Source: Bacteroidales bacterium | GTDB taxonomy: Bacteria > Bacteroidota > Bacteroidia > Bacteroidales > F082 | Assembly: GCA_015491905.1 (NCBI GenBank) | Contig: WGGC01000066.1 | Location: 3,833-67,832, forward strand | Length of the DNA: 64,000 bases | Direction: 5' to 3' | Part shown: piece by piece, positions 2,750 to 20,686 of the stretch | How the letters are laid out: the number at the start of each line of letters is the position of its first letter | Position numbering within the stretch: position 1 is the first letter of the stretch | Program-made: the position numbers and the translations under genes | Notes under the pieces: model-generated | Seen by the model: the letters and a program-made list of their open reading frames with translations, nothing else | The model's database searches: none | What the model was told of the DNA's origin: nothing

Positions 2750-2781
2750 AAATAATATTATAAACTTCTAAAATTAAATAA

Positions 2782-3738
2782 ATGAATGCTCTGGAGCAAT
2801 TGAAGAAACTTACAATAGTAGTGGCAGATACCGGTGATTTTCAGTCAATGAAAAAATATCAACCTAGAGATGCCACTACAAATCCTTCTCTTATATTACA
2901 ATCAGCATTAAATCCTCAGTATAAAGAATTAATTGATGATGCTATTGTTTATGCCAAATCTTTTAATGGTGATGAAAATAAAAAACTTCAAAAAGGAATT
3001 CAGAAACTGTTTGTAAACTTTGGTCTGGAAATATTAAAAATCGTCCCTGGCAGAGTCTCAACGGAAGTAGATGCCCGGTTATCTTTTCGAATTTATGATA
3101 CCATTGCCTATGCTAAAAATATAATCCGTTTGTATGAAAAGGAAGGAATTTCACGTGAACGGATATTAATAAAAGTGGCTGCTACGTGGGAAGGGGTGAA
3201 AGCTGCTGAAATATTGGAAAAAGAAGGAATCCATACAAATTTAACCTTGTTATTCAGCTTAACACAAGCAATTGCTTGCGCTGAGGCCGGCGTAAAATTA
3301 ATTTCTCCTTTTGTTGGCCGTATTCTCGACTGGTATAAAAAAGAAAAGAATGTAGATTATATTCCTGCTCCTCAGGATCCCGGTGTCCATTCACTTATTG
3401 AAATTTATAATTACTATAAAAAGTTTAATTATAAAACTGAAATTATGGGAGCCAGTTTTCGTAATAAAGAGGAAATTCTTGAGCTGGCAGGATGTGACCT
3501 GTTGACAATCTCCCCAAAACTACTGGAAGAGTTGGAAAATACTAATACTGTTGTAGAAAGGAAATTAAGTCCGGAAAATGCTAAAAACATTAATATGGAT
3601 AAAGTGGAATTAAATGAAATGGCTTTCCGTTGGAACCTGAATGAAAATCCTATGGCAACCGAAAAACTTGCTGAAGGAATAAGAAAATTTAGTAATGATA
3701 TCAAAGAACTTGAAAAAGTTATATATAAAGAGTTATAA
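2782..3738 (+). CDS. tal: Transaldolase
   Basis: VVADTGDF, DATTNPSLI, GRVSTEVDARLS, ILIKVAATWEG, NLTLLFS, ISPFVGRILDW, MGASFRN. Confidence 0.97.
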   Translation: MNALEQLKKLTIVVADTGDFQSMKKYQPRDATTNPSLILQSALNPQYKELIDDAIVYAKSFNGDENKKLQKGIQKLFVNFGLEILKIVPGRVSTEVDARLSFRIYDTIAYAKNIIRLYEKEGISRERILIKVAATWEGVKAAEILEKEGIHTNLTLLFSLTQAIACAEAGVKLISPFVGRILDWYKKEKNVDYIPAPQDPGVHSLIEIYNYYKKFNYKTEIMGASFRNKEEILELAGCDLLTISPKLLEELENTNTVVERKLSPENAKNINMDKVELNEMAFRWNLNENPMATEKLAEGIRKFSNDIKELEKVIYKEL

Positions 3739-3790
3739 TACAGGCAAAATTGATACTAAATAAAGAAGCGGTAAATTCATTAAAAAGTAT

Positions 3791-3798
3791 TATTTTTG
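3791..3798 (+). promoter_or_regulatory. Bacteroidetes -7 promoter element (TATTTTTG) for tRNA-Arg
   Basis: Matches TAnnTTTG, 12 nt before the tRNA 5' end. Confidence 0.6.
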
Positions 3799-3810
3799 CA
3801 TTCCCTAAGA

Positions 3811-3882
3811 GGCCTCATAGTTCAAGGGATAGAATAGGAGTTTCCTAAACTCTAGATCCAGGTTCGAGTCCTGGTGAGGCTA
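3811..3882 (+). tRNA. tRNA-Arg(CCT)
   Basis: Cloverleaf: acceptor GGCCTCA/TGAGGCT, anticodon arm GGAGT-TTCCTAA-ACTCT, T arm CAGG-TTCGAGT-CCTG. Confidence 0.95.
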
Positions 3883-3885
3883 CAA
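3867..3885 (+). repeat. attL core (3' end of tRNA-Arg, from the T-loop)
   Basis: Identical 19-mer at 11089-11107. Confidence 0.93.
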
Positions 3886-3940
3886 ATAAAAAACCATAAA
3901 CTTTTGATTTATAGTGTAAAATATATTTAACCGGTTGTTG

Positions 3941-3964
3941 TTGCACCGACTATTGCACCGACTT
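3941..3964 (+). repeat. Tandem integrase arm-type sites TTGCACCGAC-ta-TTGCACCGAC-tt
   Basis: 12-bp period; 23/24 identical copy at 10929-10952 in the same orientation. Confidence 0.8.
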
Positions 3965-4027
3965 CCCCGATTATTCCCGGATTTTTGACCTTTTGGGGGC
4001 GGTATCTATTCAATGAAATTTAATATC

Positions 4028-4091
4028 TTTGTCCTGCCTTGTGATTGAGGTAAAAGTTCAGGGGTAACCTTCCGGGGTTGCCCTTTTTGTT
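4028..4091 (+). ncRNA. Conserved 64-bp module: small hairpin plus intrinsic terminator (candidate sRNA or element-borne tRNA terminator)
   Basis: TATCTTTG at 4024-4031; stems TGCCT/AGGTA and GGGTAACCT/GGGTTGCCC followed by TTTTTGTT; 56/64 identical copy at 11249-11312. Confidence 0.45.
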
Positions 4092-4359
4092 ACTGTATAA
4101 TTTTCTTAATATGATAATAAGGCGGGTTTTTCACAGTGTTGTGATAAATATGTTTAAGTAAACTATCTGATGAAAAAGATTTCAGACCGTATATTTATCC
4201 CCGGGGGCTCATTAAATCTAAACAAACATGAATATCCCCTACAAATCCGACTATAAAAAGTTTCAAAAGTTTCACTATTTTTAAGCAAAGATTCACTTTT
4301 TTGAAGGGGAGTAATATTTATGGGTAATCGTTAATCCGACTACGCAAAAATCCGCTATC

Positions 4360-5703
4360 CTATTTCTGTTGTGCTAAAAATCGTTTTAACTCTTGTAGTC
4401 TTTTGAGGTATGGTAAAAAGGTTCGTTTACCGTTGTTTGCTTTCACGGTGGCAAAGTGGCTTTCAATAAATAGTGAACAATCTGTTATTGTAGTGTCCCT
4501 GTTTAGCTTTAAGGGTTGGGCTGGTATTTCAATATTTGAAAAGTAGTTTTCCAGTTCTGTAATGTTATTGTCCCAGCTTTTGGATTTTTCTTTTACAATC
4601 TGTTCAACTGGTTCAGGTTTAAATACCTCAACCTTGGGTAACGGTTCAGGCTTTGGTGCTTTCTTTATGTCCTGCTTTCTGAATAATTGCCAATCCTGTT
4701 TAATTAGATAGTCTGCAATATCTTTGCCTTTCTCTTTGTCCTGCTGTGGGGCTAATCGCTCCAATAAGTCTGAAACGTGAAAGTATGTACCCTGTAAACG
4801 CTTTTGTATTTCGGTGGCTTTATTGCTCCATAACTCAAAGGCTTTGCCGTCTTTTGATAGGTCAGGAAACAAATAAACATTCCTGCCTTTTAATGCCTGG
4901 CACTTGTTGAGGTTTAAACTGCTCAAATTGTAAACTGCCAACCAGAGTAAGTTTGTAGGTTGTTCAGGAAAACCAAAATACAACGTGCTATAAACAGCCG
5001 TTTTAGGTGCTTCAACCAATGCAATAGGGTTGTGTGGGTATTTACTTAAAAGGTGTTCACCAAACAAACAGGAAACCTTTATTTCGTTCTTATTGTATGC
5101 TTCCAACCAGCCGGGCAACGGCTTATTGTTTCGGGTGTGGTGCTTTTCAATTATTGAGTGTAAAAAGTCTGTGCCGGTGGTGTGGTTCTGTTCGTTAAAC
5201 TGTTTTACTTGTATTGCTCTAATATTACCCCGAACATCAATAAAAGGAAATGTTACCGCCCCTTTACGGTATCCGTTCTGCACCGTACCTAAACGGTACA
5301 ATGAAACAATCTTTTCAATGTCCTTTACTTCAAAAGGGAAGGCAACCTTTGCAAGTAAGTTTTGAATAAATACGTTCTGTTCATATCCCGAAAGTGTTTG
5401 TTTAAATACCTCAATTGGAATGAATACAGGTTTTGGCTGTGGTTTCTTTTGTTGTTTTGGTAGCTGTGGTTTCCGGTCTATTTTATTACCGTGTTCCTGC
5501 TCCCATATTGCTTTTGCGTAACCATCTTTGTACGGGTTGAGGTGGTAAGAACATTTACTTTCACGGTCGCAACGTCCGTACTGTTCGGGTAAATAGTCGC
5601 CCGTTTCTGTATCAATGTATTTAACAAATGACTTTTTACCACACAGGGGGCAGATAAACTTTCTGCTTCCATGTTCTAATTTGTATCTATACTCTGTATT
5701 CAT
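4360..5703 (-). CDS. Zn-ribbon plus TOPRIM-like protein (DUF6371/PG0870-related family), putative primase
   Basis: N-terminal CPLCGKK...CDRESKCSYH zinc ribbon; ALVEAPKTA and YLFPD acidic TOPRIM-type motifs; DIADYL; C-terminal helical domain. Confidence 0.7.
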   Translation of the reverse strand: MNTEYRYKLEHGSRKFICPLCGKKSFVKYIDTETGDYLPEQYGRCDRESKCSYHLNPYKDGYAKAIWEQEHGNKIDRKPQLPKQQKKPQPKPVFIPIEVFKQTLSGYEQNVFIQNLLAKVAFPFEVKDIEKIVSLYRLGTVQNGYRKGAVTFPFIDVRGNIRAIQVKQFNEQNHTTGTDFLHSIIEKHHTRNNKPLPGWLEAYNKNEIKVSCLFGEHLLSKYPHNPIALVEAPKTAVYSTLYFGFPEQPTNLLWLAVYNLSSLNLNKCQALKGRNVYLFPDLSKDGKAFELWSNKATEIQKRLQGTYFHVSDLLERLAPQQDKEKGKDIADYLIKQDWQLFRKQDIKKAPKPEPLPKVEVFKPEPVEQIVKEKSKSWDNNITELENYFSNIEIPAQPLKLNRDTTITDCSLFIESHFATVKANNGKRTFLPYLKRLQELKRFLAQQK

Positions 5704-5750
5704 ACTGCTTGAATTCCTGTTAAAAAAAGTTTTTTTTAAGGGCTAACTTT

Positions 5751-5795
5751 AGTAACTTTAGTAACTATCGAGTTATTTTCGTTACTAAAGTTACT
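5751..5795. repeat. Perfect 15-bp inverted repeat of tandem 9-mers (putative replication origin)
   Basis: AGTAACTTTAGTAAC (5751-5765), 15-bp spacer, GTTACTAAAGTTACT (5781-5795), immediately downstream of the helicase stop codon. Confidence 0.7.
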
Positions 5796-5815
5796 GTCTA
5801 AACAAATCTTTTTTT

Positions 5816-7303
5816 TTACCAATCCGAATTATTATTTTCCACATAAGCCGCCAGTTTATTCCCCGTAACTCTTTCAATTAAAACCCCAAACCCTTTTAGT
5901 CGTTTAATAAAATTAGACTTGTTCACGGGCTTAAAGCCATCTTCTATACAATAGTTTCTGTATTCTATGTATAGTTCTTTTATCAGCCTGTAATCAGTGG
6001 GGCTGCTTTGGTAGTTGTTTTCATCAATAAACATCTTTACACTATCGGACTGGCTTTTGTATTGCTCAACTGCTTGTTTTACTGCCCCACTATCTGTAAA
6101 GCTTTTTTGCTTCAATAGTCTATTAAGCCCATCCAGTACCCAATTAAAAACGCCTGAAAGTTCATTTTCAATTATTTTGGCATGTAGCTGTTTATCCTGT
6201 TCATGTTCGGGTATGGTAACATCAAAAGGAATAATCAAAAAACGTCTGAAATAAGCGTCTGTATGCTCAACATCTTTGGGTAACTCATTACTGTTAAATA
6301 TTAGTTTGGCATATTGTTTCAAAATAAATGGCTGCCCATACGGCAAGCGGGCTTCAACTGGTTCACCTGAAACCAATTGTTTAAATAAACTACTTTCCAA
6401 TTTTCCGTTAATCTCACTGCCATAATTTACCAACTTATTAGCCAGTTTCGCCCTGAAATAACCGTTATCATTTGTAAGGCTTTGCAATGAATAATTACTT
6501 GTATTCTCTGCTCCCAATAAAGCGCTCACAACTTCAAAAAACACGCTTTTCCCATTTGCTCCAGTACCGTAAAGTATTAACGCCTTTTCTTCTTTCAGTC
6601 TATTACTACCGTGCTTTATAAAAACAAAACCCAAATATTCAGCTAAAACCTTTTGGCGTTCTATGTCGGGCAATACCCTGTTTAAATAGGCTTCAAATAT
6701 CGGTGCTTTTGCCTGTGGGTCATATTCAAATGGTAATTGATAGGTGAGAAAATCTGAACGGTCAAACGGTCTTAATTGCGTACCTTTTGGGCTAACTTCA
6801 AACGTGCCGTTTTGCAAATTGATTAATACCTTATTTACCAAAGGTGGTTTTAGTTCAAGGTATGCAGTACCTAAAAACTGTTCAAAAAGTTCTTTTCTGA
6901 ATTTATAATACCGTGCTGAAAAGGTAGGAACGCCCATTTTTTCGGCTGCCTTTCCTAAAAACTTTTGAAATGTTTCTTTGTCCAGTTCAGCCCAGTGAGT
7001 ACCATTGAATAAATAAATGAAATCGTGGTTCTTGCATAAGCCCCAACGGTTGTTTTCTGCTTTCCGTAAGACGTTTTCAATAGATAAAACAGTATAATGC
7101 TTATTTGTTAGTTTAAAGTTTTCGGCACTGTGAGGGTTTGCCATTGCTTCAAAGTCCAACGGTTCAAACTGTTCAAGTAATTGGCTTAATATTTCATCGT
7201 GTGGGGTTGCTGTGGTATTTGTTATTTCCTGAACATGGTTTAAAATCGGTTTAGATTGCTGCAAGTCCTCGCCAAAATCTGGGTTTATCTTAATGGCTTC
7301 CAT
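5816..7303 (-). CDS. P4-family D5_N + SF3 replicative helicase (usually annotated 'phage/plasmid primase, P4 family')
   Basis: INLQNGT, Walker A GTGANGKS, FKQLVSGEPVEAR, IFNSNELP, AYFRRFLIIPF. Start moved to ATG 7303 (MEAIKINP), which follows AAAGGAG. Confidence 0.9.
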   Translation of the reverse strand: MEAIKINPDFGEDLQQSKPILNHVQEITNTTATPHDEILSQLLEQFEPLDFEAMANPHSAENFKLTNKHYTVLSIENVLRKAENNRWGLCKNHDFIYLFNGTHWAELDKETFQKFLGKAAEKMGVPTFSARYYKFRKELFEQFLGTAYLELKPPLVNKVLINLQNGTFEVSPKGTQLRPFDRSDFLTYQLPFEYDPQAKAPIFEAYLNRVLPDIERQKVLAEYLGFVFIKHGSNRLKEEKALILYGTGANGKSVFFEVVSALLGAENTSNYSLQSLTNDNGYFRAKLANKLVNYGSEINGKLESSLFKQLVSGEPVEARLPYGQPFILKQYAKLIFNSNELPKDVEHTDAYFRRFLIIPFDVTIPEHEQDKQLHAKIIENELSGVFNWVLDGLNRLLKQKSFTDSGAVKQAVEQYKSQSDSVKMFIDENNYQSSPTDYRLIKELYIEYRNYCIEDGFKPVNKSNFIKRLKGFGVLIERVTGNKLAAYVENNNSDW

Positions 7304-7532
7304 GGTTATCTCCTTTCTGCAAAGTGTACAACTGTGGGTTGTTCTCAATTAAAACCTTCGGCATCCCTATCCAAAGGCCACGGCCATAATTCAAGGTGTA
7401 ACCGTTTTCAGTTTCAATAAAATAATGTTTTTTGCCGGAAGGAAGTCCCAGCTTTTTAGGCATGTTTACTTGGAATTTTTTCTTATCTTTGCGCTGGTTC
7501 TGCCTGTCTTCGGATGGGCTTTTTTTATTCAT
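7290..7532 (-). CDS. Small basic hypothetical protein (80 aa), translationally coupled
   Basis: Overlaps the upstream stop and the downstream start; AAAGGAGG 8 nt before its ATG. Confidence 0.55.
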   Translation of the reverse strand: MNKKSPSEDRQNQRKDKKKFQVNMPKKLGLPSGKKHYFIETENGYTLNYGRGLWIGMPKVLIENNPQLYTLQKGDNHGSH

Positions 7533-7860
7533 CTCTCTGTCCTCCTTTGTTTATTAGTGCTTGTTCGACATCTGATCTCCTATATCGCACCTTACTGCCT
7601 ATTCTGACAGGCTTTAGTACATTTTTGTTATCCCAATGCCATAGAGTTGTGAGAGTTACTGATAGCATTTCTGCAACTTGTTGCCGGGTTAATAGTTCGT
7701 CCGGTTCATTTTGGGCTTGTATGCGGGCTTCAACCTCTTGTGCGGTATCTTGTACCAATTTATCGGCAAAGCTTATAAGATCGCTTCCGCTTACTTGTAA
7801 TGTGATGCTTTTTGCAATTTCCGGATATTGCTTTAATATTTTTATATCTATTGTTTTCAT
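7525..7860 (-). CDS. Helix-turn-helix (MerR/Xis-type, HTH_17) DNA-binding protein
   Basis: LLTRQQVAEMLSVTLTTLWHWDNKNVLKPVRIGSKVRYRRSDVE. Start set at MKTIDIK (7860), right after the upstream stop. Confidence 0.85.
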   Translation of the reverse strand: MKTIDIKILKQYPEIAKSITLQVSGSDLISFADKLVQDTAQEVEARIQAQNEPDELLTRQQVAEMLSVTLTTLWHWDNKNVLKPVRIGSKVRYRRSDVEQALINKGGQRDE

Positions 7861-7861
7861 T

Positions 7862-8089
7862 TTATTTTTCTTTGGTTGGTTCATGTTTACTACTTAATAA
7901 CCATTTGTCAATCTCTAAGCGATCGAAAAACAGAATCTTTCCTCCAGGTCGGCTATAAGGGACAACCCCCTTTCTTACCAACACATATAGATAGGCTTTA
8001 CTAATTCCAGTATAGGCGGCAAGTTCATCCATGTTAAACACCCTTTTTTGAGAGAGGTCGATTTCCGTAGTTTTAAGTTGTTTTTCCAT
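7862..8089 (-). CDS. Excisionase/AlpA-like HTH protein
   Basis: FNMDELAAYTGISKAYLYVLVRKGVVPYSRPGGKILFFDRLEIDKWL. Confidence 0.88.
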   Translation of the reverse strand: MEKQLKTTEIDLSQKRVFNMDELAAYTGISKAYLYVLVRKGVVPYSRPGGKILFFDRLEIDKWLLSSKHEPTKEK

Positions 8090-8225
8090 AATATTTATTA
8101 TTATTTATTGCATTTATAATGTGGTAATTATGCAGCAATAATATATATTATACACCCAAAGGATAGGTAATAATTACACTAATAAAGGAAATTATCACGT
8201 AATATACTCGGGTCAAATTATTTGC

Positions 8226-8233
8226 TATATTTG
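8226..8233 (+). promoter_or_regulatory. -7 promoter element TATATTTG for the lipoprotein gene
   Basis: TAnnTTTG consensus 10 nt before the ATG at 8244. Confidence 0.5.
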
Positions 8234-8243
8234 AAAAAACATT

Positions 8244-8540
8244 ATGAAAAAGTTAATTATTATTATTGCAATTGCAGCTTTGACAAGTTGTGTAATGCCG
8301 TCCAGGATGGCAAAAATTCAAATGGGATGGGATAAACAGCAAGTAGAACATCTGATGGGTAAACCTGTTGAGGTAAGCGCACAGGGACATATTACAGCGT
8401 TTAGATACCTAATGTTTGATGAATATTACTATGTTACATTCTACGATAATAAAGTAGCAAGTTTTGGAAAATTAGGCGACTTCAACTCAACAAAGAACCC
8501 AACTCTTGATTTAAATGTTACAACTAAAAAGAGGAAATAA
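8244..8540 (+). CDS. Small lipoprotein, SmpA/BamE-like fold
   Basis: Signal peptide MKKLIIIIAIAALTS-C with lipobox; IQMGWDKQQVEHLMGKP fits the 'l..Gmtk.qV..llG.P' motif. Confidence 0.7.
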   Translation: MKKLIIIIAIAALTSCVMPSRMAKIQMGWDKQQVEHLMGKPVEVSAQGHITAFRYLMFDEYYYVTFYDNKVASFGKLGDFNSTKNPTLDLNVTTKKRK

Positions 8541-8657
8541 CCACTCATCATCTGATGATTACATAATTTTATAACAAAAACGCTAAATAATTGAACACAA
8601 AAGGAAACTGATTACCCAATAATCCATCTAATAATTACTTTCTTGCACAAAAAAGTT

Positions 8658-9209
8658 ATGGGATTAGTAGATGGACTTATCGGATCGGGATTGTCAATTT
8701 TTGGAATGGCAAAAGGTGCAAAAGCCGGGAGGCAATTACAAAACGCTCAAGAAGGAGTTTTAGGCAGACAAAATAGTCTTGCGGATTGGTATAACAATCA
8801 GTCGAACAAAAGCTTTTTTGATACACAAGCAGCTCAATCAGGGTTAGCACGCATCAGAGACCAATACAAAAACTCTCTCGATCACATTAACAGCAACGGT
8901 GTTCAGGGCGGGGCTACAACGGAAGCTAAAGTAGCAGCTAAAAGTTCTTTGCAGGATTCTTATAACAAGTCTCTAAGCAACTTAGTCGGTTACGGAACAC
9001 AGTATCAGAATAACATGAAAAGAGCTTATGGAGGCACACTGCAAGGGATGTATCAGGGTAACAACGCTACTTACATGCCAGCTATTCGCTCGTGGGGGAA
9101 TCTTGCTAACAAAGGAGCAGATATAGCCCAGAAAGGGTTTGCATCAATGGAACTACCTACAGGAAAAGATGCTGGTTCTCTTGCGTCTATTCTTAAATTT
9201 TTATTTTAA
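8658..9209 (+). CDS. Gly/Ala/Gln/Asn-rich protein resembling phage virion ejection/DNA-pilot proteins
   Basis: N-terminus MGLVDGLIGSGLSIFGMAKGAKAG, then polar helical segment with WY and GGATTEAKVAAK. ORF track starts at TTG 8643; ATG 8658 is preferred. Functional call is by resemblance only. Confidence 0.55.
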   Translation: MGLVDGLIGSGLSIFGMAKGAKAGRQLQNAQEGVLGRQNSLADWYNNQSNKSFFDTQAAQSGLARIRDQYKNSLDHINSNGVQGGATTEAKVAAKSSLQDSYNKSLSNLVGYGTQYQNNMKRAYGGTLQGMYQGNNATYMPAIRSWGNLANKGADIAQKGFASMELPTGKDAGSLASILKFLF

Positions 9210-9305
9210 AAAACAATAAATACAATCTTAAAAGCTTTATATAAATAGGCAACTGTTTACTTGTAAAAAGGTCAGTCCAAAAATGGACTCATCTTTGCCC
9301 CAACC

Positions 9306-9551
9306 TCAAATAGGACGGCTCGAAAATGAGCTTTCCTGTTCAGCAGCAGAAAGTAACTCTATCAAGTCCGTATAAGTTGTGAAAACGTCACCAGTATTTG
9401 TCCTTTGGGGTTTTAAGTCGAGGAAAGCCCTGAACATATCTGTTAAATTTTCTTTGTGCCATGACATGTTTGCCTGGTCTTTCATTTCTTCAATCAATGA
9501 AATAACCTTTTCTTTACTACTGTTTTCCGTTTGTTTTTTTGCTTGTTCCAT
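9306..9551 (-). CDS. Small hypothetical protein (81 aa) downstream of the integrase
   Basis: Clean ORF co-oriented with int; predicted helical. Confidence 0.55.
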   Translation of the reverse strand: MEQAKKQTENSSKEKVISLIEEMKDQANMSWHKENLTDMFRAFLDLKPQRTNTGDVFTTYTDLIELLSAAEQESSFSSRPI

Positions 9552-9605
9552 GATAATAAATTTAAAGTGAAATAAAAGGAAATATTACTGTTATAATTAC
9601 TAATA

Positions 9606-10883
9606 TTATTTTGCAACTTTCAAATGGCTCCCGTTGTTCAGCCACATATCCCGCATCTTTTCAGCGTGTTCCTGCGGGGTTACTTTGATATATTTCAAAA
9701 ATGCGCTTTCCGTACGGTGTCCTGTTACGGCCATTATTGTAATTGAGGGGATGCCGGCCTTGTACATGTTGGTAGCAAAAGAACGCCGGGCGGTGTGGGT
9801 GCTAATCATTTGCCATTTGGGTTTTATAGTGGTTTCCAGTTTGCCTCCTCGTGTAAATTGTTTAGTGATTGCCTCTTTAAAGTCGGTCATCCGTGCAACC
9901 TCTTTCAAATATTCGTTGAATTTTTGGTTTGAAATAGGCCGGGGTAAATTGCCCTCGTATTTGTTCAGGATATTTTCAACTGGGGGATGTATAGGTATAA
10001 CAACCGGTTTGTTTGTCTTTTGTTGTTTTAGGGTGATAAATCCGTTTTCTATATTTTCCGGCCTTACTTTATGCCAGTCTGAAAATCTTAATCCAGTCCA
10101 GCAGCCGATTAAAAATAAGTCCCGTACCCGGTCAAGTTTTGGTTTATTTGACAAGTCCAAATTTTGGATTTTATCCAGTTCCGAAAGTGACAAATAAATA
10201 TTGTCTGTTTCCTCTGCAATAGCCTTAAAACGTTTACTTTTAAAAGCCAGGTTTGTATTTATACCCCTATCAGTGGCTTGGTTCAAAACAATTTTAAGGA
10301 AACGTATTTTTTTACCAATAGTATTTTGTGCTAAATTCCTGCTTTTCAAATATTTGATAAAGTCATTATAAAAATCCAGGTCAATATCTTTAAAATCAAT
10401 TTTCTTACCTCTGCTTTTGGCGTATTCTTTCAGGTAACCAAACGTTACATGAAATTCACGTTTTGACTGATAAGATATTTGCTTATCTGTCTTTTGGTTT
10501 ATCCGGTGGTCAAGGTTGTCTATTACAGACTGGAAAAACTCAAAAAGGGTCATTTTCTTTTCCTTGTATTTATCAGGAAAACGATATTTATCAATGACTG
10601 TATTTAACCATTCGGACGTCGGGGGTTCTTTCAGGGCTTTGTATGCCCCTATTATGGTGGCCTCTAACTTGTCAAGGTACTGTTTATCCTTGTCCTTATC
10701 GACGTATCTGGCCTGCTTATTTATAGTGTGGGTTTCGTTGCTGAAATGTCCCGGCAATACTTCAAGGCCTGATTTTGCATAAAGGTTGATTTTCTTTCCG
10801 TGATAAAATCTTACCCTTACATTAATTTTTTTTGTCGGGTCGGTCTTCTTTGATGTCCTGATGTAAAAATAGACTGTCGCCAT
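9606..10883 (-). CDS. Tyrosine recombinase/integrase (Bacteroidetes type with arm-binding and SAM-like domains)
   Basis: Catalytic set intact: GLRFSD (R), QKT (K), HTARR (HxxR), GHR (H), FLKYI (Y). Confidence 0.96.
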   Translation of the reverse strand: MATVYFYIRTSKKTDPTKKINVRVRFYHGKKINLYAKSGLEVLPGHFSNETHTINKQARYVDKDKDKQYLDKLEATIIGAYKALKEPPTSEWLNTVIDKYRFPDKYKEKKMTLFEFFQSVIDNLDHRINQKTDKQISYQSKREFHVTFGYLKEYAKSRGKKIDFKDIDLDFYNDFIKYLKSRNLAQNTIGKKIRFLKIVLNQATDRGINTNLAFKSKRFKAIAEETDNIYLSLSELDKIQNLDLSNKPKLDRVRDLFLIGCWTGLRFSDWHKVRPENIENGFITLKQQKTNKPVVIPIHPPVENILNKYEGNLPRPISNQKFNEYLKEVARMTDFKEAITKQFTRGGKLETTIKPKWQMISTHTARRSFATNMYKAGIPSITIMAVTGHRTESAFLKYIKVTPQEHAEKMRDMWLNNGSHLKVAK

Positions 10884-10907
10884 TGAGATTTAATTTAAAG
10901 TCCATTG

Positions 10908-10915
10908 CAAAGTTA
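10908..10915 (-). promoter_or_regulatory. -7 element TAACTTTG of the integrase promoter
   Basis: Reverse complement of CAAAGTTA, 24 nt upstream of the int ATG; its -33 region falls on the arm repeats. Confidence 0.55.
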
Positions 10916-10928
10916 TTAAATATTTTCA

Positions 10929-10952
10929 TTGCACCGACCATTGCACCGACTT
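10929..10952 (+). repeat. Tandem arm-type sites TTGCACCGAC-ca-TTGCACCGAC-tt near attR
   Basis: Near-identical to 3941-3964. Confidence 0.8.
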
Positions 10953-11088
10953 TTATTTAATTTCGTTTAATCTTTTGATACTTAATTAACCTTTTATTTA
11001 TTTTTAACATTGCTGTTAATAACTGATTAACTGCACTTTTATACCTATTTTCAGCACATTACATATCTCGTGAAATTAATAGGGTTAT

Positions 11089-11107
11089 AGTCCTGGTGAG
11101 GCTACAA
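11089..11107 (+). repeat. attR core (duplicate of the tRNA-Arg 3' end)
   Basis: Identical to 3867-3885. Confidence 0.93.
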
Positions 11108-11312
11108 CTTAAAAATATAAAGTAGTGTATTACAATTATTTATAGTACACTGCTATTTATATTGTAACCACCAATGTAACCACCACCTTAATTATTCCCT
11201 GAATATTGCTGTATTTTTACCGTGGTGGGTTAAATGGAATTTAGTTCTTTTGTCATGCCTTGTGATTAAGGCAAAAGTTCAGGGATAACCTTTCAGGATT
11301 GACCTTTTTGTT
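11108..11312 (+). mobile_element. Left end of a second, decayed sister element
   Basis: Same layout and spacing as 3886-4091: tandem TGTAACCACCA repeats (11163-11173, 11175-11185), ATTATTCCC, and the 64-bp module at offset 160 versus 161 bp from att. Confidence 0.75.
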
Positions 11313-11437
11313 TTTAAAAGAAACTATTCATAAAATGGTGAATATTTTTTTAAATATTTCTTGAATTAATCTAACAATTTTCTTTTTTTTAGAAGATGAT
11401 AGTTAAGATTATTGGGAGTTCTTTTCAATATCATAAG

Positions 11438-11579
11438 TTTTCTTTTATAACAAATAATAATAAACAAAACTACCATAACTTCCAATTGTGTATGCTGTTA
11501 CAAATATGTAGCCTTATTTAGTGAAAAAATTTATAGCATCTGTCATACCATTAAAAACTACTGGTTTATTTTTATCATC
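11438..11579 (-). pseudogene. Fragment of a small Bacteroidetes hypothetical protein with two in-frame stops
   Basis: Hand translation DDKNKPVVFNGMTDAINFFTK*GYIFVTAYTIGSYGSFVYYYLL*KK resembles a recalled family pattern (D..gk...FnsM.DAlNy....GW.fv.AY.......vYhyLlkK). Confidence 0.45.
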
Positions 11580-11870
11580 TATAATAATAAATTAATGTTA
11601 ACCGATATAATTATGGACTAGGGTAAATCGAAAAATATCTAAAATCAAAAGTCGAATAATTTGTATAATTGTAATCTGTTCTAGACTTAATAATTGGGGG
11701 TTGGGGCACAGTATACGAAAAAAATGAATCATAATATTTACTTGAAAAAATAATTGTATTTTTACTCATAATCTGTATTTTCCTACAATTCATAATAAAG
11801 TAAAACTTATGATTGGATATCATTAAAATAAATCGGGATTGCCTGAAATGAAGATTAAGCTGGCAAAAAT

Positions 11871-13937
11871 ATGAAAAAACACTATCCCTCAATATTATTT
11901 ATACTCTTACTTCTCATCGTATCATTTTATTATGGTTATAACGAGATAATATTTAAACGGCCACAGTCGATACATAAGTGGAGACAATCAGATTGTGCTT
12001 CTATTGCATTAAATTACTATCAGGATGGAATGAAGTTTTTTGAACCCGAAACCCATAACCTTACTTCAGATGGCGGAACCAGTGGGAAAGGTTGTACCAG
12101 TGAGATTCCAATCTTGTATTATAGTATAGCATCATTATATATGTTTTTTGGATATCATGAATATATATACCGGATGTTTAATACGCTTCTCTTCTTCCTT
12201 GGCCTTTTTTATCTCTTTCGTCTTATGCGTTTTATGCTTAAAGATGTTTTTTGGGCAATTACACTGACTCTCTTATTTTTCACTTCTCCGGTTCTGGTAT
12301 ATTATGGAAATAATTACCTGTCGAATTCGTCCTCGTTAGCTTTTTCAATTATCGGGTGGTATTATTTTATTCGTTTCTATTTCGAAAGAAAACCAAAATG
12401 GTTTTATGTTTCTATGTTTGTTTTTTTGATTGCTGCCGCTCTTAAAGTAACGGCTCTTTTTAGTCTTTTTGCAATTACCGGCATTTACGTGCTGGAATTA
12501 TTAGGTTTAAAGAAATTCAAGACAAAAGGAAAAATATTTAACCAGCCTGTCCGTCAAGTAGTATCTATTTTTTCAATATTTGTTATTATCAGCCTCTGGT
12601 TATTTTATGCACATAATTTTAATCAAAAACATGACTGTACTTATTTTTCCACAACAATATTTCCAATATGGAGCTTAAGCAGTACTGAAATTAACGTAGT
12701 TGCAGACAATATTAATAAGATATGGATAGATGAGTATTTCCATAAATCGGTACTGTTTTTTTTGATAATTTGTTTAGTATTTATTGTTGCGTTTTTTAGA
12801 AAAAATAATAAGCTGCTTATCTTTAGTATCCTTTTTATTTTTGTTGAGGTTATTTTGTATATCATCCTTCAGTTCTGGACATTCGCTGACCATGATTACT
12901 ATGTTATAGGAATTTATATTCTACCAGTCCTGATTGTTGTTACTGCTTTTGATGTATTAAAAAGGCATTTCAATAAAATATTTAATTCCAAAATATTTAA
13001 GATTGGATTTTTTATTTTTCTGCTTTTCAATATTTATTATGCTCATCATAAAATTAAAGATCGTTATAAAGGATGGATGAACGATTATCAGCAAAATATA
13101 GACGTCTATTCTATTACTCCTTATCTACGTCAAACAGGTATTTTGCCAGGCGATACTGTTATTTCCATCCCCGACTGGAGTAATGCCTCACTATATCTGA
13201 TGAATCAAAAAGGATGGACAGAATATACAGACGAGAGATTCAATAGGGGAGCGCCAATACGCTATAATCAGGACAGTATTGGAATTCAACATTCCATTGA
13301 TAAGGGAGCCCGGTATTTAATTGTCAACGGAATAAAAGAATTATACAACAAGCCATACTTACAAAGTTATTGTACAAACCTGATAGGGCATTATAATAAT
13401 GTTCTGATTTTTAATCTTAAAAACAATGTGAGAAACTTTAGTCTTATAAATCGTAAAATTAATGCAATTTATACTTGTGATGCTGAATCGATAAGCAATG
13501 ATAAGCGGTTTTTCATTAGCAAAATAAATGGTGCTTTATTTCAGAATGGCAAAACCCGAAGTAATATATTTGCTCACAGTGGAAGATATTCATCTAAACT
13601 TGATGCGGATTCTCCATATGGAATGACAATTAAAATGAAGAACTTGAAAGTTGGAGAAAGTTTTGATATTACTGTCTGGCGAAAAGTAACCGGCAGGGCG
13701 AAAGGTGGGTTAATAGCATCAAGTTCGCCAAAACAATATTACAATAGCAACTATAAGGTTCTTGACACAGATTTAGGTGGGTGGGAAAAGATAGAAATGC
13801 AATTATTTATTTCTTCTAAACTGGCGAACCAGGAGTTAGTAATTTATGTATATAATCCTGATAAACAGCCGGTATATTTTGATGATTTAGAAATTATCAG
13901 ATATAAAAGTGTTTTTAATAGGTTTACAGGTGACTGA
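11871..13937 (+). CDS. GT-C fold (ArnT/PMT-like, GT39) polytopic glycosyltransferase with C-terminal carbohydrate-binding-like domain
   Basis: HKWRQSDCASIA loop motif, EIPILYY, many TM segments; C-terminal AHSGRYSSKL...VYFDDLEI CBM-like domain. Confidence 0.7.
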   Translation: MKKHYPSILFILLLLIVSFYYGYNEIIFKRPQSIHKWRQSDCASIALNYYQDGMKFFEPETHNLTSDGGTSGKGCTSEIPILYYSIASLYMFFGYHEYIYRMFNTLLFFLGLFYLFRLMRFMLKDVFWAITLTLLFFTSPVLVYYGNNYLSNSSSLAFSIIGWYYFIRFYFERKPKWFYVSMFVFLIAAALKVTALFSLFAITGIYVLELLGLKKFKTKGKIFNQPVRQVVSIFSIFVIISLWLFYAHNFNQKHDCTYFSTTIFPIWSLSSTEINVVADNINKIWIDEYFHKSVLFFLIICLVFIVAFFRKNNKLLIFSILFIFVEVILYIILQFWTFADHDYYVIGIYILPVLIVVTAFDVLKRHFNKIFNSKIFKIGFFIFLLFNIYYAHHKIKDRYKGWMNDYQQNIDVYSITPYLRQTGILPGDTVISIPDWSNASLYLMNQKGWTEYTDERFNRGAPIRYNQDSIGIQHSIDKGARYLIVNGIKELYNKPYLQSYCTNLIGHYNNVLIFNLKNNVRNFSLINRKINAIYTCDAESISNDKRFFISKINGALFQNGKTRSNIFAHSGRYSSKLDADSPYGMTIKMKNLKVGESFDITVWRKVTGRAKGGLIASSSPKQYYNSNYKVLDTDLGGWEKIEMQLFISSKLANQELVIYVYNPDKQPVYFDDLEIIRYKSVFNRFTGD

Positions 13938-14129
13938 TAACCATTTTAGATCCGATAAACACAGCAAATATTTTTAAAAAAAAGCCGATGGCTCCTGCCC
14001 TCATTGCCTACTATAAAAAAAAGTTCAGATAATTTTTCCCGGAAAGGGAACCAACGGTTAAGTTAAAATAGTATTTATTACTGGATCATATTGATTATTA
14101 TATAAGGGTTTGAATATAAAATATCTTGG

Positions 14130-15296
14130 TTAAGATCTTCTTTTAATTTGATATAAACGGGTGGTAAGCAACAGTGCGCTAAATCCCAGGATTAGCAATA
14201 AATGTTGAAATTGTGGTACTACACTTTGCCAGGTTCCGCCCATCAAAAATAGCCGCCGCATAGCTTCGAGCATGGGCGTAGTTGGAATTAAAGCTGCAAG
14301 CCATTGTAAAACAACAGGCATCGAAGAAATGGGCCAGGAATATCCCGACAACAGAAAAAGCGGATAAGTTGAAAAGGCAAGAATTTCAAGGGCATGTGTT
14401 TGTTTCTTGATGAAAGAGCCAATAAGCATGGAATACATAGCGGTGGTGATAATAAACAGCAAGCCGATGATAAAAATGGGGACCATTGATGAGGCTACAG
14501 GAAGTTGAAATACGGGAAAAATGACCCGTGAAAAAAAATAGAGATAAGTAAAGTACAATAAGATGTAATAGGCTGGTTTCCCAACCATATATTGGATAAC
14601 GCCATATTGTGTAGCTTGTAGCGTCGGTGCCAGCAGCCCGTTTTGGCGATCTTTGCTAATGCTCTCGGCCATACCCAGCACCAGTGTTTGTTGCAGAATT
14701 ATAAAAAACAGGGCGGGCAGTAAAAAGTCACCATAATTATTGGTAGGATTGTAAATAGGTTTTATATTGGGTCTTATGGGGTTTGCTAATCTTGCCGCCA
14801 TCTTTGAATTAGTTCCGTCGGCATAAAAATGTTGGAGGCGTATATGTGTTCCGGCCTCCAGAAATACTCTGTTCACCGCCATGTTCAGCGTATTGGAAGT
14901 CAGAAAACGGGTTGTGTTTAAAAGCAGATTGACGTCTGCCTCTTTTTTTTTCAAGATGTTCTTTGCGAGACCTTTGGGGAATACTATGAAACCCTGGATA
15001 TTTAAATCTTGTAATTCACTTACCGCTTCATCTTTATCTTGAAGTATTTTTATGATCTTAATTTTAGGACTGGCCGATAGTTGTCGAATAAGCTCACGGC
15101 TGACATTTGAATGATCGTAATCAACGATGCCAAAAGGGATTTTGTTAATGTCTTTATTCAGGTAAATAGAACCCAAAAAGAAAGCATAAAGTATTGGGGC
15201 TGCAATTACAGTAATAAAAATACTGTGGTCATTGATAACCCTTTTCAGTTCGTTTATGAATATTTGAATGATATTGTTTAACGCTTTCATTTTCAA
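14130..15296 (-). CDS. ABC-2 type permease (YbhR/YbhS-like)
   Basis: IPFGIVDYDHSNVSRELIR, YNPTNNYGDFLLP, FLLSGYSWP. Confidence 0.88.
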   Translation of the reverse strand: MKMKALNNIIQIFINELKRVINDHSIFITVIAAPILYAFFLGSIYLNKDINKIPFGIVDYDHSNVSRELIRQLSASPKIKIIKILQDKDEAVSELQDLNIQGFIVFPKGLAKNILKKKEADVNLLLNTTRFLTSNTLNMAVNRVFLEAGTHIRLQHFYADGTNSKMAARLANPIRPNIKPIYNPTNNYGDFLLPALFFIILQQTLVLGMAESISKDRQNGLLAPTLQATQYGVIQYMVGKPAYYILLYFTYLYFFSRVIFPVFQLPVASSMVPIFIIGLLFIITTAMYSMLIGSFIKKQTHALEILAFSTYPLFLLSGYSWPISSMPVVLQWLAALIPTTPMLEAMRRLFLMGGTWQSVVPQFQHLLLILGFSALLLTTRLYQIKRRS

Positions 15297-16477
15297 GCTT
15301 CTTTTAAAATGAGATTTGATTTTGATTTTTCATCCATTCTTAATTTCATGGCAACATATGTGGTAAGAAAGCCAACAAGAGTGAAAATACCGAGAATGAG
15401 AAATTCTTTTTCCACACTTGCCAAAGGAGTTCCTATTTGATAAAGTTTGAAAAAAGCATGCAGGAAATGGGTGTAGGGAATAAACTGTGCCCAAAGTTGA
15501 TCAAAGAAAGGCATTCCCATTACAGGAAAAGTAAATCCACTAAAGATAAAAGCCGGAGAATTGTAAAACAGGGCCAGGTCGAGTGCAACAATTTCTTCCT
15601 TTACAACTGCCGAAAGGGCCATGCCTAATGTGGCATTTGCCAGTACAAACATAAAAAAAAGCAAGAGCGTTTCACCGATTTTATCTTGATAAGGAATTCC
15701 GAAAAGGTTGAAAAGGATGCTGATAAAGAAAACAATCGTCATCCCGATTCCTGTATAAACCAATAGTTTACCAAAGATAATATTCAAAACATTGTGCTTT
15801 GAGGTTTCTTGTAAATCATCCTGCCTGTTGTTCTTATATTCTTTATTCAAGGAGCGTGTCCCCATGAAAAAAACAATCATTTGAAGTAAAACAGTGAGTA
15901 ATCCCGGCACGAGATAATACAAATAGTTGTACTCTGGATTAAATAAAGAATGTGTTTTTACCGCTATAGGTAGTGCCAGTCGTCGTGCCTGATAAGGCGT
16001 TAACCCTTGTGCTACAAGTTTTTTAACTAAAACACCACCTGAAACTGTTTCAATCAGGTGAAAAGCATTTCGCTTTAAGATCTTTCCGTAAATGATGTTT
16101 GTTGAATTTGTCAATACGCTTATTTCGGTGTTTTTTCCTTTAAAAACATCTTTTTCAAGTGCCGGTGGTATGCAGTATACAGCCTTTTCGGGATAGTGTA
16201 GAAAGTAATTTTTCAGTTGTGCTTCCGAATGTAAATAACGTGTTACTTTCGTGTCGGGCGAGGCGTTGATAAAGTTGATAATGGTTCGGGAAAGTTTGGA
16301 ATGATCCTGATCCAATACCGCCACCGGAATTTTGCGTAATGCTCCGGCAGAATAAATGCCAGCCAAAAGCGTGAATACAATCAGCGGAACCCACAACACA
16401 ACCACTCTCGAATTACGGCTACTAACCATCATGTGCCATTCACGTTTTGCCACATTAAAAATTGCAGATATTTTCAT
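15293..16477 (-). CDS. ABC-2 type permease (YbhR/YbhS-like)
   Basis: IPVAVLDQDHSKLSR, FNPEYNYLYYLVPG, FIFSGFTFP. Confidence 0.88.
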   Translation of the reverse strand: MKISAIFNVAKREWHMMVSSRNSRVVVLWVPLIVFTLLAGIYSAGALRKIPVAVLDQDHSKLSRTIINFINASPDTKVTRYLHSEAQLKNYFLHYPEKAVYCIPPALEKDVFKGKNTEISVLTNSTNIIYGKILKRNAFHLIETVSGGVLVKKLVAQGLTPYQARRLALPIAVKTHSLFNPEYNYLYYLVPGLLTVLLQMIVFFMGTRSLNKEYKNNRQDDLQETSKHNVLNIIFGKLLVYTGIGMTIVFFISILFNLFGIPYQDKIGETLLLFFMFVLANATLGMALSAVVKEEIVALDLALFYNSPAFIFSGFTFPVMGMPFFDQLWAQFIPYTHFLHAFFKLYQIGTPLASVEKEFLILGIFTLVGFLTTYVAMKLRMDEKSKSNLILKEA

Positions 16478-16543
16478 TTATTTTATTTGTTTAAGATATT
16501 ACAACCCACCTGATCAAGGATATTTCAGCCTCTACCTTAACAA

Positions 16544-17524
16544 TTATAAAGTAATCTGAACAGTCATCCCCGGACGTAAACCATGAATAGGCTGTACCGG
16601 TTTAAGCCTGACTTCAAAGGTTTTTAAATCATATTCTCCTTTTGCTTTGGTAGGTACCCAGGTAGCAAAGTTGGCCATAGATGCGAGATAATAAACTTTG
16701 AATCGAAAAGTCTTTCCGCCAATGCCGGGAACTTTTCCATTCAGGATATTCCCTTTTTTGAAATGGTTTAACCGGTCTTCTCTCACGTTGATAACAGCGT
16801 AAATTTTATCAGGACGCATAATAGTAAGTATCGGATATCCGGCTTTCATTACTTCGCCTTCTTCACCAATTTTTTCACTGATTTCACCGGAAACCGGAGC
16901 AATAATTTTCAACTGTTTGTAATAGGCTTGTGCCTCTTTATAAACCCCTGTTGCCGTCTCAAGTTTACCTTTTACAATTTGAAGATCCTCGTGTGTAGCC
17001 CCGTTTTTTGCCATCTGATAAGAGGATTGGGCTGCTTCCATTTGATTTTTTGCCGCGGTGTGTTTAAAATTCAGTTCATCCATCTCCTGTTTAGAGATAA
17101 TACTATCGGCATACAAAACCCGATATCTTTTATAGGTCTTATCGACAAATTCAAACTGGCTTCTGGCTATCAGGTACTGATTGCGTGCTGCATGGATCAG
17201 TTCTTCACGTGTACCTTTTTCAACTTTCTTCATCAGTGATTCAGTAGCCTCTTTTATGCCCTGGGCTTGTGTTAGTTTGGCATTCATAATATTTGCTTCG
17301 AGCGTAGCCAGTAATTGTCCTTTTTGAACATGATCACCTAAACCAACATATAGGCTGTCGATTCTTCCGGGAATCTCAGAAGAAACATCAACAGTTGGAG
17401 CTTCAAATGTTCCTGTAATAATGTTTTTAGGTTTTTGATTTTCTCTTGTAATCATCCATAAAAGGGCAATTAGCACAACCGCAACAGGAATGGATAGAGC
17501 AAGAATACTTTTGTTTTTTTTCAT
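16544..17524 (-). CDS. HlyD-family membrane fusion protein
   Basis: N-terminal TM, VSSEIPGRI...GDHVQKGQLL, coiled coil, IIAPVSGEI, FEVRLKP...LRPGMTV. Confidence 0.92.
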   Translation of the reverse strand: MKKNKSILALSIPVAVVLIALLWMITRENQKPKNIITGTFEAPTVDVSSEIPGRIDSLYVGLGDHVQKGQLLATLEANIMNAKLTQAQGIKEATESLMKKVEKGTREELIHAARNQYLIARSQFEFVDKTYKRYRVLYADSIISKQEMDELNFKHTAAKNQMEAAQSSYQMAKNGATHEDLQIVKGKLETATGVYKEAQAYYKQLKIIAPVSGEISEKIGEEGEVMKAGYPILTIMRPDKIYAVINVREDRLNHFKKGNILNGKVPGIGGKTFRFKVYYLASMANFATWVPTKAKGEYDLKTFEVRLKPVQPIHGLRPGMTVQITL

Positions 17525-17531
17525 GGTTTTA

Positions 17532-19022
17532 TTACTTATTGTTTTGATTATTACGACTTAAAATTTCAACAGCCTTTTCCGCCTGGCCGGTGGCAAGGTA
17601 AATGTCTGCCAAAGCCAGATTATAATTGTAAAGGCTGTGCAGGCGTTCAATACGGATTTTTTCATCTAGTAACCGGGCATCAATTACATCAATCGATTTT
17701 GAAAGTCCTTCCTGAAAACGTTTTTCAGTAATTTTCAGGTTCTCGGACGATAAAGCCAGTGTGGGTTTCATTTTCAGATAACGATCTTTAGCATCTAACG
17801 CTTTTCGGTACGACTGGTTTATCCACAAATCAATCTGTTCGTTTGCGTATTTTCGTGCATTGATAATTTGTTTTTGTAAGTGCCGGGTGGCTTTTATCCG
17901 GTTTATTTTTTTAAAGCCGTTAAATAAATTGATTTTTGCCTGAATACCAACGGAAACGGGTGGCATTATCACCGGATATTGATCCTGAAAAGCACTGTAT
18001 TCGCCCCATGCAGCTATTTGTGGGAGAAATGCCGAACGGTCAACTGCTTTTTTCTGTTTAACCATATTCTCCTGCTGATCAATGAGTTTAAAAACCGGCT
18101 GATACAGTTTTGCGTCTTGTTGCAGATTTTCAAGATTTAACGGCACAGCCATGAACTTTAAAGTATTTGTTAACGTAAGAGGAATGTCCGGTTTTAACCC
18201 CATATTTGTTTTTAATGCCATAAGCGCAAGCGATTGTTTGTTTTGATCATCCGATAAATCTCGTTCAGCATTGGCAACCGCCACTTTAGCACGCAAAAGC
18301 TCTTGTTTATTGATTATTCCAAGTTTGTAAGCCTTTTCGGCCTGGCTTTCATGCTTTCGCATTCCTCCTAAAACATTTAGCCTTGTTTTAACTACTTGTT
18401 TAAGTAATGCAACAGCATAATAGTTTTTAATGGTTTCGCGAGTTAATTTGTTTTCAACTTCTTTTAATTCTAGTCGTGCGCTTTCCGCATCAGCCCTGGC
18501 AAAACGTAAACTTGCTGTGATTTTTCCTCCCGAATAAATAGGCTGGATAGCTGTTATGTTCAGGTTGGGATATTCCTGTTTGTCGATAACAATATTCGAT
18601 AGGGGCATCTTGCTTAATGTCTGCATGAGGCTGCCAAGAATCGGAAGCATGTTCGCCGGAACAGCACCACCTTGTGCTAATGCCTGACTAATCTGTTGCA
18701 TATTTTCATTTAACGAATTTTTTATTGGGCTCATATTTATTTCAGGGTTTCTGTTCAAATAAGTGTAACCAGCATTGGCATTAATACTTGGAAAGTAATT
18801 TCCTTTGGCCGCTTTTATCAAATATTCTTTTTGCCGTACGATCTGGCGATACTGGTTCACCTGACTATTGTTGTTCAACGCACTATCTACTGCTGCCTGA
18901 AGGTTTATTGTCAGAGGGGTGTTCTGTGCAATAAGTGGCGGTATCCCTAAAAAGCTGATAAGTAGAAAAAATGCGCATAAAACACATGCCCGTGAATGAA
19001 ATTTTGCTTTTGTCTGGTTCAT
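17532..19022 (-). CDS. TolC-family outer membrane efflux protein
   Basis: Signal peptide; AVDSALNNN, YFPSINANA, QPIYSGGK, FQEGLSKSIDVIDAR. Confidence 0.9.
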   Translation of the reverse strand: MNQTKAKFHSRACVLCAFFLLISFLGIPPLIAQNTPLTINLQAAVDSALNNNSQVNQYRQIVRQKEYLIKAAKGNYFPSINANAGYTYLNRNPEINMSPIKNSLNENMQQISQALAQGGAVPANMLPILGSLMQTLSKMPLSNIVIDKQEYPNLNITAIQPIYSGGKITASLRFARADAESARLELKEVENKLTRETIKNYYAVALLKQVVKTRLNVLGGMRKHESQAEKAYKLGIINKQELLRAKVAVANAERDLSDDQNKQSLALMALKTNMGLKPDIPLTLTNTLKFMAVPLNLENLQQDAKLYQPVFKLIDQQENMVKQKKAVDRSAFLPQIAAWGEYSAFQDQYPVIMPPVSVGIQAKINLFNGFKKINRIKATRHLQKQIINARKYANEQIDLWINQSYRKALDAKDRYLKMKPTLALSSENLKITEKRFQEGLSKSIDVIDARLLDEKIRIERLHSLYNYNLALADIYLATGQAEKAVEILSRNNQNNK

Positions 19023-20522: not shown

Positions 20523-20564
20523 ACAAGTTTAAAATTCGGGTGTAAAGAATGTGCAATATGTGTT

Positions 20565-20612: not shown

Positions 20613-20613
20613 G

Positions 20614-20686
<73 letters not shown>

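Follow-up and report, generated by a model that had tools for sequence, protein, structure and literature searches.

The integrases of lambda and HK022 are close relatives whose DNA specificity is modular: the two share arm sites and differ in core specificity. The integrase family described here presents the reverse case, in which the same core is found with different arms, both between an element that we call element 1 and a relative in genome G007 and between the integrase loci L085 and L086. Element 1 lies in a 64,000-nucleotide stretch of DNA from a Bacteroidales bacterium, analysed here as a whole (the window), and is followed by a short segment that we refer to as the relic. As in lambda-type heterobivalent sites, short repeats on both arms of element 1 flank a tRNA-derived core, and the predicted fold of its integrase places an N-terminal three-strand sheet and a helix before the core-binding and catalytic domains. 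Unlike the lambda-type sites, however, each arm of element 1 is one direct pair with a 12-bp period, the two pairs being putative sites in the same orientation at ≈160 and 57 nt from the core, and the relic keeps one arm only.

The IntCTnDOT subgroup and NBU1 (PMC8138268) resemble element 1 in their Bacteroidota host, in an integrase made up of Phage_int_SAM_5, catalytic, and unannotated N-terminal domains, and in the use of a tRNA 3′ end, a likeness of the element 1 integrase to the subgroup that is based on domain make-up and target. Element 1 differs from them in having no relaxase or oriT; with its D5-like helicase, DUF6371 Zn-ribbon protein, and HTH_17 protein, it looks more like a P4/PICI-style satellite. 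Tandem islands at tRNA genes are already well known, and Islander counts a tandem array only where every member comes with an integrase and a tRNA fragment of its own (PMC4383910). The window resembles the Islander arrays in that successive elements share a tRNA gene, with the newer one nearest the intact tRNA and the displaced fragment between them. Unlike the members of such arrays, however, the relic has no intact integrase and no displaced tRNA fragment of its own (only two cores are found when three mismatches are allowed), and the window therefore holds an island plus a remnant, not an array, under that definition (PMC4383910).

The integration target is a tRNA-Arg(CCT) gene (3811-3883, plus strand; found by ARAGORN, with an Rfam tRNA score of 62 bits) whose 3′ end forms the attL core of element 1, GTCCTGGTGAGGCTACAA, at 3868-3885 on the plus strand. 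This 18-bp core occurs exactly twice in the window, against a shuffle expectation of 0.03. The other copy, at 11090-11107 on the same strand, is the attR core of element 1, a displaced tRNA fragment; it denotes where the relic starts and where the junction lies in an element-free allele (L035, described below). No third core was found in the window, which was scanned with a tolerance of three mismatches, or in the rest of the genome. The 7.2 kb between the two cores (3886-11107) constitute element 1, which carries on its minus strand genes for a Zn-ribbon/DUF6371/DUF6965 protein, a D5_N/DUF5906 helicase, an HTH_17 protein, and, at the far end, a tyrosine integrase. Between the helicase and DUF6371 genes lies a perfect 15-nt inverted repeat (AGTAACTTTAGTAAC / GTTACTAAAGTTACT, with a 15-nt spacer, at 5751-5795), which is a candidate replication origin.

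The arm unit of element 1, TGCACCGAC, occurs four times in the window, as two 12-bp-phased pairs that begin at 3942/3954 and 10930/10942. The tRNA-proximal pair (3942-3962, plus strand) lies 57 nt past the left core, and the int-proximal pair (10930-10950, plus strand) precedes the right core by 160 nt and sits 47 nt from the start of int, on the upstream side. Beyond the tRNA-proximal pair are a box, GATTATTCCCGGAT, at 3969-3982, and a module (4009-4091, plus strand) that comprises a −7-like box (TATCTTTG, 4024-4031), a 7-bp hairpin, and an intrinsic terminator with a T-run (4060-4085, also matched by a terminator scan). The integrase itself (9606-10883, minus strand; 425 aa) is a tyrosine recombinase with matches to Pfam PF13102 and PF00589, and its PF00589 catalytic domain contains the invariant R/K/H/R/H/Y columns. 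In its AlphaFold model (pLDDT 92), strands at residues 3-8, 20-28, and 32-42 and a helix at 63-82 precede the core-binding domain, and this sheet and helix are the predicted counterpart of the arm-binding domain. A Foldseek search with the model matched Tn1549 Int and full-length lambda Int (1z1g), the latter over 380 columns.

The initial annotation had described the left-end layout of element 1 as repeated after attR at matching spacing, and this description holds, as the core, the 12-bp-phased pair, the box, and the module are all present. With 3867 and 11089 as zero points, the offsets are 75 and 74 for the arm pairs and 161 and 160 for the module register (4028 and 11249), just as that annotation had given them, and its coordinates and the shared arm skeleton TGnAnCnAC are likewise correct. 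The arm pair of the relic consists of two copies of TGTAACCAC with a 12-bp period (11163-11183, plus strand; copies at 11163 and 11175), 56 nt past the core. These are the only copies of TGTAACCAC in the window, and no tandem of this unit was found elsewhere in the whole genome. Two exact copies carry little weight by themselves, as 6 of 100 shuffles give two, but its position makes it non-random: relative to the core, it sits where five other left ends of the family have theirs. An element with TGTAACCAC ×2 arms was also sought; the 72 matches in the genome collection and at least 120 matches in metagenomes had no family integrase nearby, and the pattern is too frequent in 12-nt coding repeats for this search to be informative.

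Between the arms and the module of the relic, alignments reveal a conserved box, AATTATTCCCTGAAT (the ATTATTCCC box; 11190-11204, plus strand), which is the counterpart of the element 1 box and is also found in G001 and G023. The relic module (11230-11312, plus strand) is 83% identical to that of element 1 (4009-4091) over 83 nt without a gap, with a BLAST E value of 7e-19 against the whole genome. The stretch between core and arms is mostly diverged from that of element 1, and homology to the family ends at 11312, so that the left end of the relic (11108-11312) measures 205 bp. We consider that this segment is very probably the orphan tRNA-proximal end (the attL side, or P′ arm) of an older, gutted relative of element 1, a reading that draws on the layout, on its homology, on the absence of partner parts, on the presence of the relic in an allele free of element 1, and on a plain ancestral spacer in related species.

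The same layout, in which the core is followed by ≈56 variable nt, a 12-bp-phased pair, the box, and the module, is found in other genomes of the genus, after tRNA-Arg in G019 and G007, after another tRNA in G001, and after tRNA-Thr in G023. The G007 element (L142, G007:C1:541800-561799) is intact, spans 19.9 kb, and has an identical 18-bp tRNA-Arg core; it carries pairs of TGCAACCAC at both ends, at the same distances as in element 1, and its integrase is 79% identical to the element 1 integrase. In place of the D5-like helicase this element has an AAA_25 helicase, and its defense-type cargo includes type I restriction-modification genes (HsdM/S/R), Schlafen/AlbA_2, DUF1016, and ApeA-HEPN proteins, a KAP NTPase, and an IS3 transposase.

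Five copies of the module, all from this genus, were aligned, and the alignment falls into three parts, a −7-like box, a 7-bp hairpin, and an 11-bp terminator stem followed by a U-tract. Across the 18 pairs of the two helices there are many G-U pairs, which work on the plus strand only, together with one compensatory change and several one-sided changes. An Rfam scan of 3500-22000 (E ≤ 1) returned two tRNAs and chance matches, none of them for the module. An exact-pattern scan of the genome collection returned the two known copies in the genus and one chance match inside an amylase-like gene, and a covariance model (R1) found no module copies in 60 family genomes or 98 loci except for a weak match (E = 0.4) at the analogous place in G007. 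The module could be a small RNA or a replacement terminator for a tRNA whose own terminator is displaced by the element.

Assemblies of the same species carry the tRNA-Arg site both with and without element 1. In L035 (JALSWB010000628.1 of GCA_027073335.1), window positions 2440-3885 are joined directly to 11108-12688, and the allele differs from the joined window flanks by two SNPs and one 3-nt indel, none of them within 11108-11312. A second conspecific assembly (L034) has the same tRNA-Arg/relic junction without element 1, conspecific L037 carries element 1, and the contigs of L033, L036, and L038 end precisely at the core. The population is polymorphic for element 1, and because clean empty and occupied sites are both present with flanks that are 99.9% identical, the element has been active recently. 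The relic appears to be older than element 1, as it is present and identical in alleles with and without that element. In this species, attB is the tRNA plus the relic.

Several parts of the relic module are degraded. Its −7-like box reads TTCTTTTG (11245-11252) versus TAnnTTTG, and its terminator stem (11282-11304) has two mismatches, A·A and C·A; hairpin 1 (11256-11273) is intact. The fold z-score is −0.1 for the relic module versus −1.9 for that of element 1, and a terminator scan of 10880-11900 found no terminator-like site, although the same scan detects the site in element 1. These observations bear on the idea that the relic has been co-opted, whether for termination of read-through from tRNA-Arg in the element-free allele, as attB-adjacent sequence, or as a decoy for the arm-binding integrase. 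Co-option would be in keeping with hairpin 1, which is not only intact but even improved (G-C where element 1 has G-U), with an arm pair that is perfect in both copies, and with the lack of allele differences within 11108-11312. The terminator, however, is the part required for tRNA termination and is also the part that is broken, and the identity between alleles reflects the 99.9% overall identity and not selection, which leaves co-option unlikely.

The relic might instead be a diverged duplicate of element 1's own left end, created for example by aberrant excision or re-integration, and indeed the element 1 copy of the module is the best match to the relic module in the genome. We regard such an origin as very unlikely, given that the relic is 64% identical to the element 1 end overall, no closer than to the ends in G001, G019, and G023 (60-64%). 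In both copies, moreover, its arm unit departs from that of element 1 at three of nine positions and lies one base from TGCAACCAC, the unit of G007, G019, and G001; and element 1 is recent, being polymorphic, whereas the relic is identical in both alleles. Since its identity to all other left ends is alike at 60-64%, the relic is, on the evidence of these alignments, a separate lineage and not a recent copy. The T in its arm unit could be post-mortem drift from TGCAACCAC, an explanation made less likely by the identical change in both relic copies.

The relic has arm repeats on one side of the core only, whereas element 1 has pairs on both sides (3942 and 10930), and no second TGTAACCAC pair that could serve as its right-end arm pair was found in the window or genome. 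A search for an intact second family integrase was negative, as the region holds one intact family int gene and the other is a pseudogene. Searches of 11100-20700 with the proteins of element 1 and the G007 element (tblastn, E ≤ 5) found no replication or Xis remnants, the sole match being the integrase pseudogene. A live or mobilisable sister element in tandem, kept from co-excision by its different arms, would fit with the complete left-end layout and the distinct arms, and tandem arrays in tRNA genes are common, with 125 among 3919 islands (Islander, PMC4383910). Such an element is nevertheless extremely unlikely here: the segment has no attR core, second arm pair, replication genes, or intact integrase of its own, its promoter box and terminator are damaged, and the interior genes are vertically inherited chromosome.

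The sister element at the same att site that the initial annotation had proposed thus survives in part. A second family member with the same tRNA-Arg(CCT) core and a different arm repeat is indeed represented, but as a 205-bp orphan end that lacks an integrase, a right core, a second arm pair, and replication genes and in which the promoter box and terminator have decayed. Similarly, the proposal that successive elements stack and regenerate the core agrees with our reading insofar as an older member appears to have held the site and the core to have been regenerated, but the piece that remains is a dead end, for which the suggested role of diverged arms in preventing cross-excision is moot because nothing is left to excise. 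The segment is an ordinary fossil, chiefly useful for annotation, where it fixes how far element 1 really extends on the right and cautions against calling a tandem array.

Another contig of the same genome (C81:6590-7520) holds a degenerate remnant of the family that consists of a truncated DUF6371 gene and a C-terminal helicase fragment, with TAGTGCCGA-type 9-nt repeats between the two that are candidate iterons. This DUF6371/helicase remnant was considered as the missing body of the relic and rejected, as no link between the two was found.

Two related species provide a view of the chromosome around these tRNA genes. The G010 locus runs TAL, tRNA-Arg with its own terminator, a 150-aa ORF, tRNA-Lys, MeaB, and NUDIX, with 0.6 kb between the tRNAs, and in G009 the spacer ORF, tRNA-Lys, MeaB, and NUDIX are arranged as in G010, with 1.1 kb between the tRNAs. 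The outer genes of the window, TAL at one end of the locus and MeaB and NUDIX at the opposite end, are those of G010, yet 16.7 kb separate its tRNAs, and the 150-aa spacer ORF was not found anywhere in its genome. Protein and tRNA anchors were used for these comparisons in place of a DNA search for synteny with the relic and the downstream gene, which was uninformative because the species are too diverged. The plain spacer of 0.6-1.1 kb between tRNA-Arg and tRNA-Lys in two related species argues that the relic is not ancestral chromosome. The initial annotation had named, as the finding that would speak against it, the presence of the segment as ancestral chromosome at an empty tRNA-Arg site; the segment does stand at such a site in L035, but it is not ancestral, the spacer in G009 and G010 being plain. 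Ancestral host sequence, either the native region downstream of tRNA-Arg or the region upstream of the 688-aa gene that follows the relic, copied by element 1 or resembled by it through chance, would account for the identical segment in the allele without element 1 but can be given almost no credence, as a terminator belonging to the tRNA and then an unrelated ORF come next in G009 and G010, the region downstream of tRNA-Arg is variable across the genus, the arm-plus-module layout adjoins three different tRNAs as element ends, and the 688-aa gene is never syntenic with tRNA-Arg in relatives.

If the segment is an orphan end, as we favor, the following course of events would account for the locus. 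An older family element, bearing its own TGTAACCAC pair (putative arm-type integrase sites) and a promoter-hairpin-terminator module, would have integrated at the tRNA-Arg(CCT) 3′ end and restored the 18-bp core, so that a later element was able to enter. It would later have been gutted, with the loss of its replication genes, right-end arm pair, and attR core; its integrase now probably persists only as the pseudogene at ≈20230-20582, and relocated chromosomal genes would fill the space between relic and pseudogene. Element 1, with the same core and TGCACCGAC arms, would then have entered the intact tRNA 3′ end and moved the relic 7.2 kb downstream.

The family integrase pseudogene (≈20230-20582, minus strand) fuses residues ≈146-189 to residues ≈305-388, contains stops, and is devoid of the N-terminal part. 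It is ≈50% identical to the element 1 integrase, and a comparison with the three close integrases (those of the window, G007, and G001) discerned no nearest one. The pseudogene abuts the terminator of tRNA-Lys(CTT) (20613-20686, minus strand), which in G009 and G010 is the convergent neighbor of tRNA-Arg, and its strand and position are as expected for the distal int of a tRNA-Arg element, not of a tRNA-Lys element. It is reasonably likely to be the right end of the relic, a link across 9 kb that is drawn only from orientation, position, and ancestral spacing. Such an assignment needs a deletion that removed the 5′ part of int, the arm pair, attR, and the ancestral spacer. An int fragment also lies beside tRNA-Lys in G019 (L053 913-1163), so the family may target tRNA-Lys(CTT) as well.

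The DNA between the relic and the pseudogene amounts to ≈8.7 kb and is not typical cargo. An AT-rich non-coding stretch (11313-11870) with no homology to family elements is followed by a gene for a PMT_2-like membrane protein and an operon of TetR, OEP, HlyD, and two ABC-2 genes (11871-20007, identified by Pfam). The 688-aa downstream gene has only ≈35% identical paralogues, on other contigs, and was therefore of no use as a synteny anchor. Orthologues of the TetR operon are found in G017 (85% identity) and G005 (77%), and in both genomes the operon adjoins a different gene, whose orthologue sits on another contig of the window's own genome. On this distribution, the operon is vertically inherited chromosomal DNA that is located elsewhere in the nearest relatives, which implies at least one further rearrangement.

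Several smaller observations concern the same region. The AT-rich stretch holds a 54-nt sequence (11655-11708, TTTGTATAATTGTAA...GGGGGTTGGGGCA) that is multicopy in G017 (six copies, several of them at contig ends), G002, and G014 and that in one case is directly followed by an IS30-like transposase fragment. This repeat could represent a lone IS end or a MITE, and we can only speculate that it marks a rearrangement event. Contig C83 of the window's own genome (1862-2440) carries a second TetR-family gene, of 192 aa, beside a glycyl-tRNA-synthetase-like gene, which in G017 and G005 neighbors the orthologue of the window's TetR operon; the C83 gene may be a trace of the event by which the operon was relocated. 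The gene order around tRNA-Lys and MeaB also differs in L147 (G017:C1:70000-86000), where a GH130 orthologue lies downstream of MeaB, and within this genus the tRNA-Arg/tRNA-Lys neighborhood seems to be a hot spot of rearrangement.

To place the arm repeats in a wider context, we turned to the integrase family, using a set of 80 Bacteroidota loci that encode integrase relatives, of which 77 were usable. In 52 of these 77 loci, the region 20-140 nt upstream of the int start holds an exact tandem repeat (≥8 nt), with a 12-bp period in 41, whereas such repeats occur in only 2.3% of the 15,234 control windows drawn from these loci. The repeat units differ widely among family members. Six loci, one of them the window, have the same unit again at a distance of several kb, ≈57-70 nt from a tRNA gene that is not the same in all, and three of the six have it there as a full tandem pair. 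From their placement, we infer that the 12-bp-phased repeats are arm-type sites bound by the integrase N-terminal domain.

The expectation that arm sequence and integrase arm-binding residues would co-vary across the family is supported at the level of domains: the arms vary across the 77 loci and change together with the N-terminal domain, most clearly in L085 and L086 (Paludibacter/Bacteroidales; integrases at L085:9566-10996 and L086:586-1947). The catalytic domains of these two integrases are ≈90% identical and the core-binding domains 79%, but identity over the first ≈100 residues is 37%, the change being abrupt near residue 130. The arm units are unrelated (TATTCTTACCA versus TTTGTCCCCCC), while the tRNA-Gln core is identical. 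The pair is the clearest natural experiment in exchange of an N-terminal domain together with its arm repeats, and it offers a natural system for asking what determines arm specificity in Bacteroidota integrases and whether this specificity insulates co-resident elements. Among pairs with at least 60% catalytic-domain identity, the N-domain identity minus the catalytic identity is −6.5 for like arms versus −17.3 for unlike arms (Mann-Whitney p = 0.002, a value not corrected for relatedness, from non-independent pairs and a crude measure of arm similarity).

Orphan ends similar to that of the window occur at two other loci. In L086, an orphan left end with L085-type arms lies just past the element's own attR core, with the same spacing as in the window (−298 versus −302 from the int start), and it shares a further block with the left end of the L086 element itself. 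In L095, at tRNA-Phe, a similar extra pair resembles the TGTACC-type arms of other tRNA-Phe elements, and no second integrase was found within 9.5 kb of it. Given these orphan ends, which are like that of the window, elements with the same core and different arms do, on this comparison of ends, succeed one another at one tRNA. At least three arm variants, TGCACCGAC, TGCAACCAC, and TGTAACCAC, occur among the family members that use the tRNA-Arg core. A broader proposal, which we offer tentatively and consider doubtful, is that competitors for the same core diversify by swapping a cassette of the integrase N-terminal domain and its cognate arm repeats, which would insulate co-resident elements; the relic of the window and the L086 and L095 ends would then be traces of turnover. 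If this were true, elements could stack without cross-excision, composite excision, or competition for arms.

Among the closest integrases, the comparison is informative chiefly for the core. The N-terminal domains of the window, G007, and G001 integrases are 76, 73, and 77% identical, which gives no clear signal for the small change in arms. The core-binding domain (residues 100-220 of the window integrase) is 85% identical between the window and G007 but ≈60% identical between the window and G001, which uses another tRNA; outside this domain, identity is 70-77% whichever two of the three integrases are compared. As aligned, the core-binding domain is tracking the tRNA core among these three integrases. 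Few N-terminal differences accompany the small change in arms. Within the N-terminal domain, integrase positions 5-7, 21, and 27, which fall in predicted strands 1 and 2 of the model, are candidate determinants of arm specificity.
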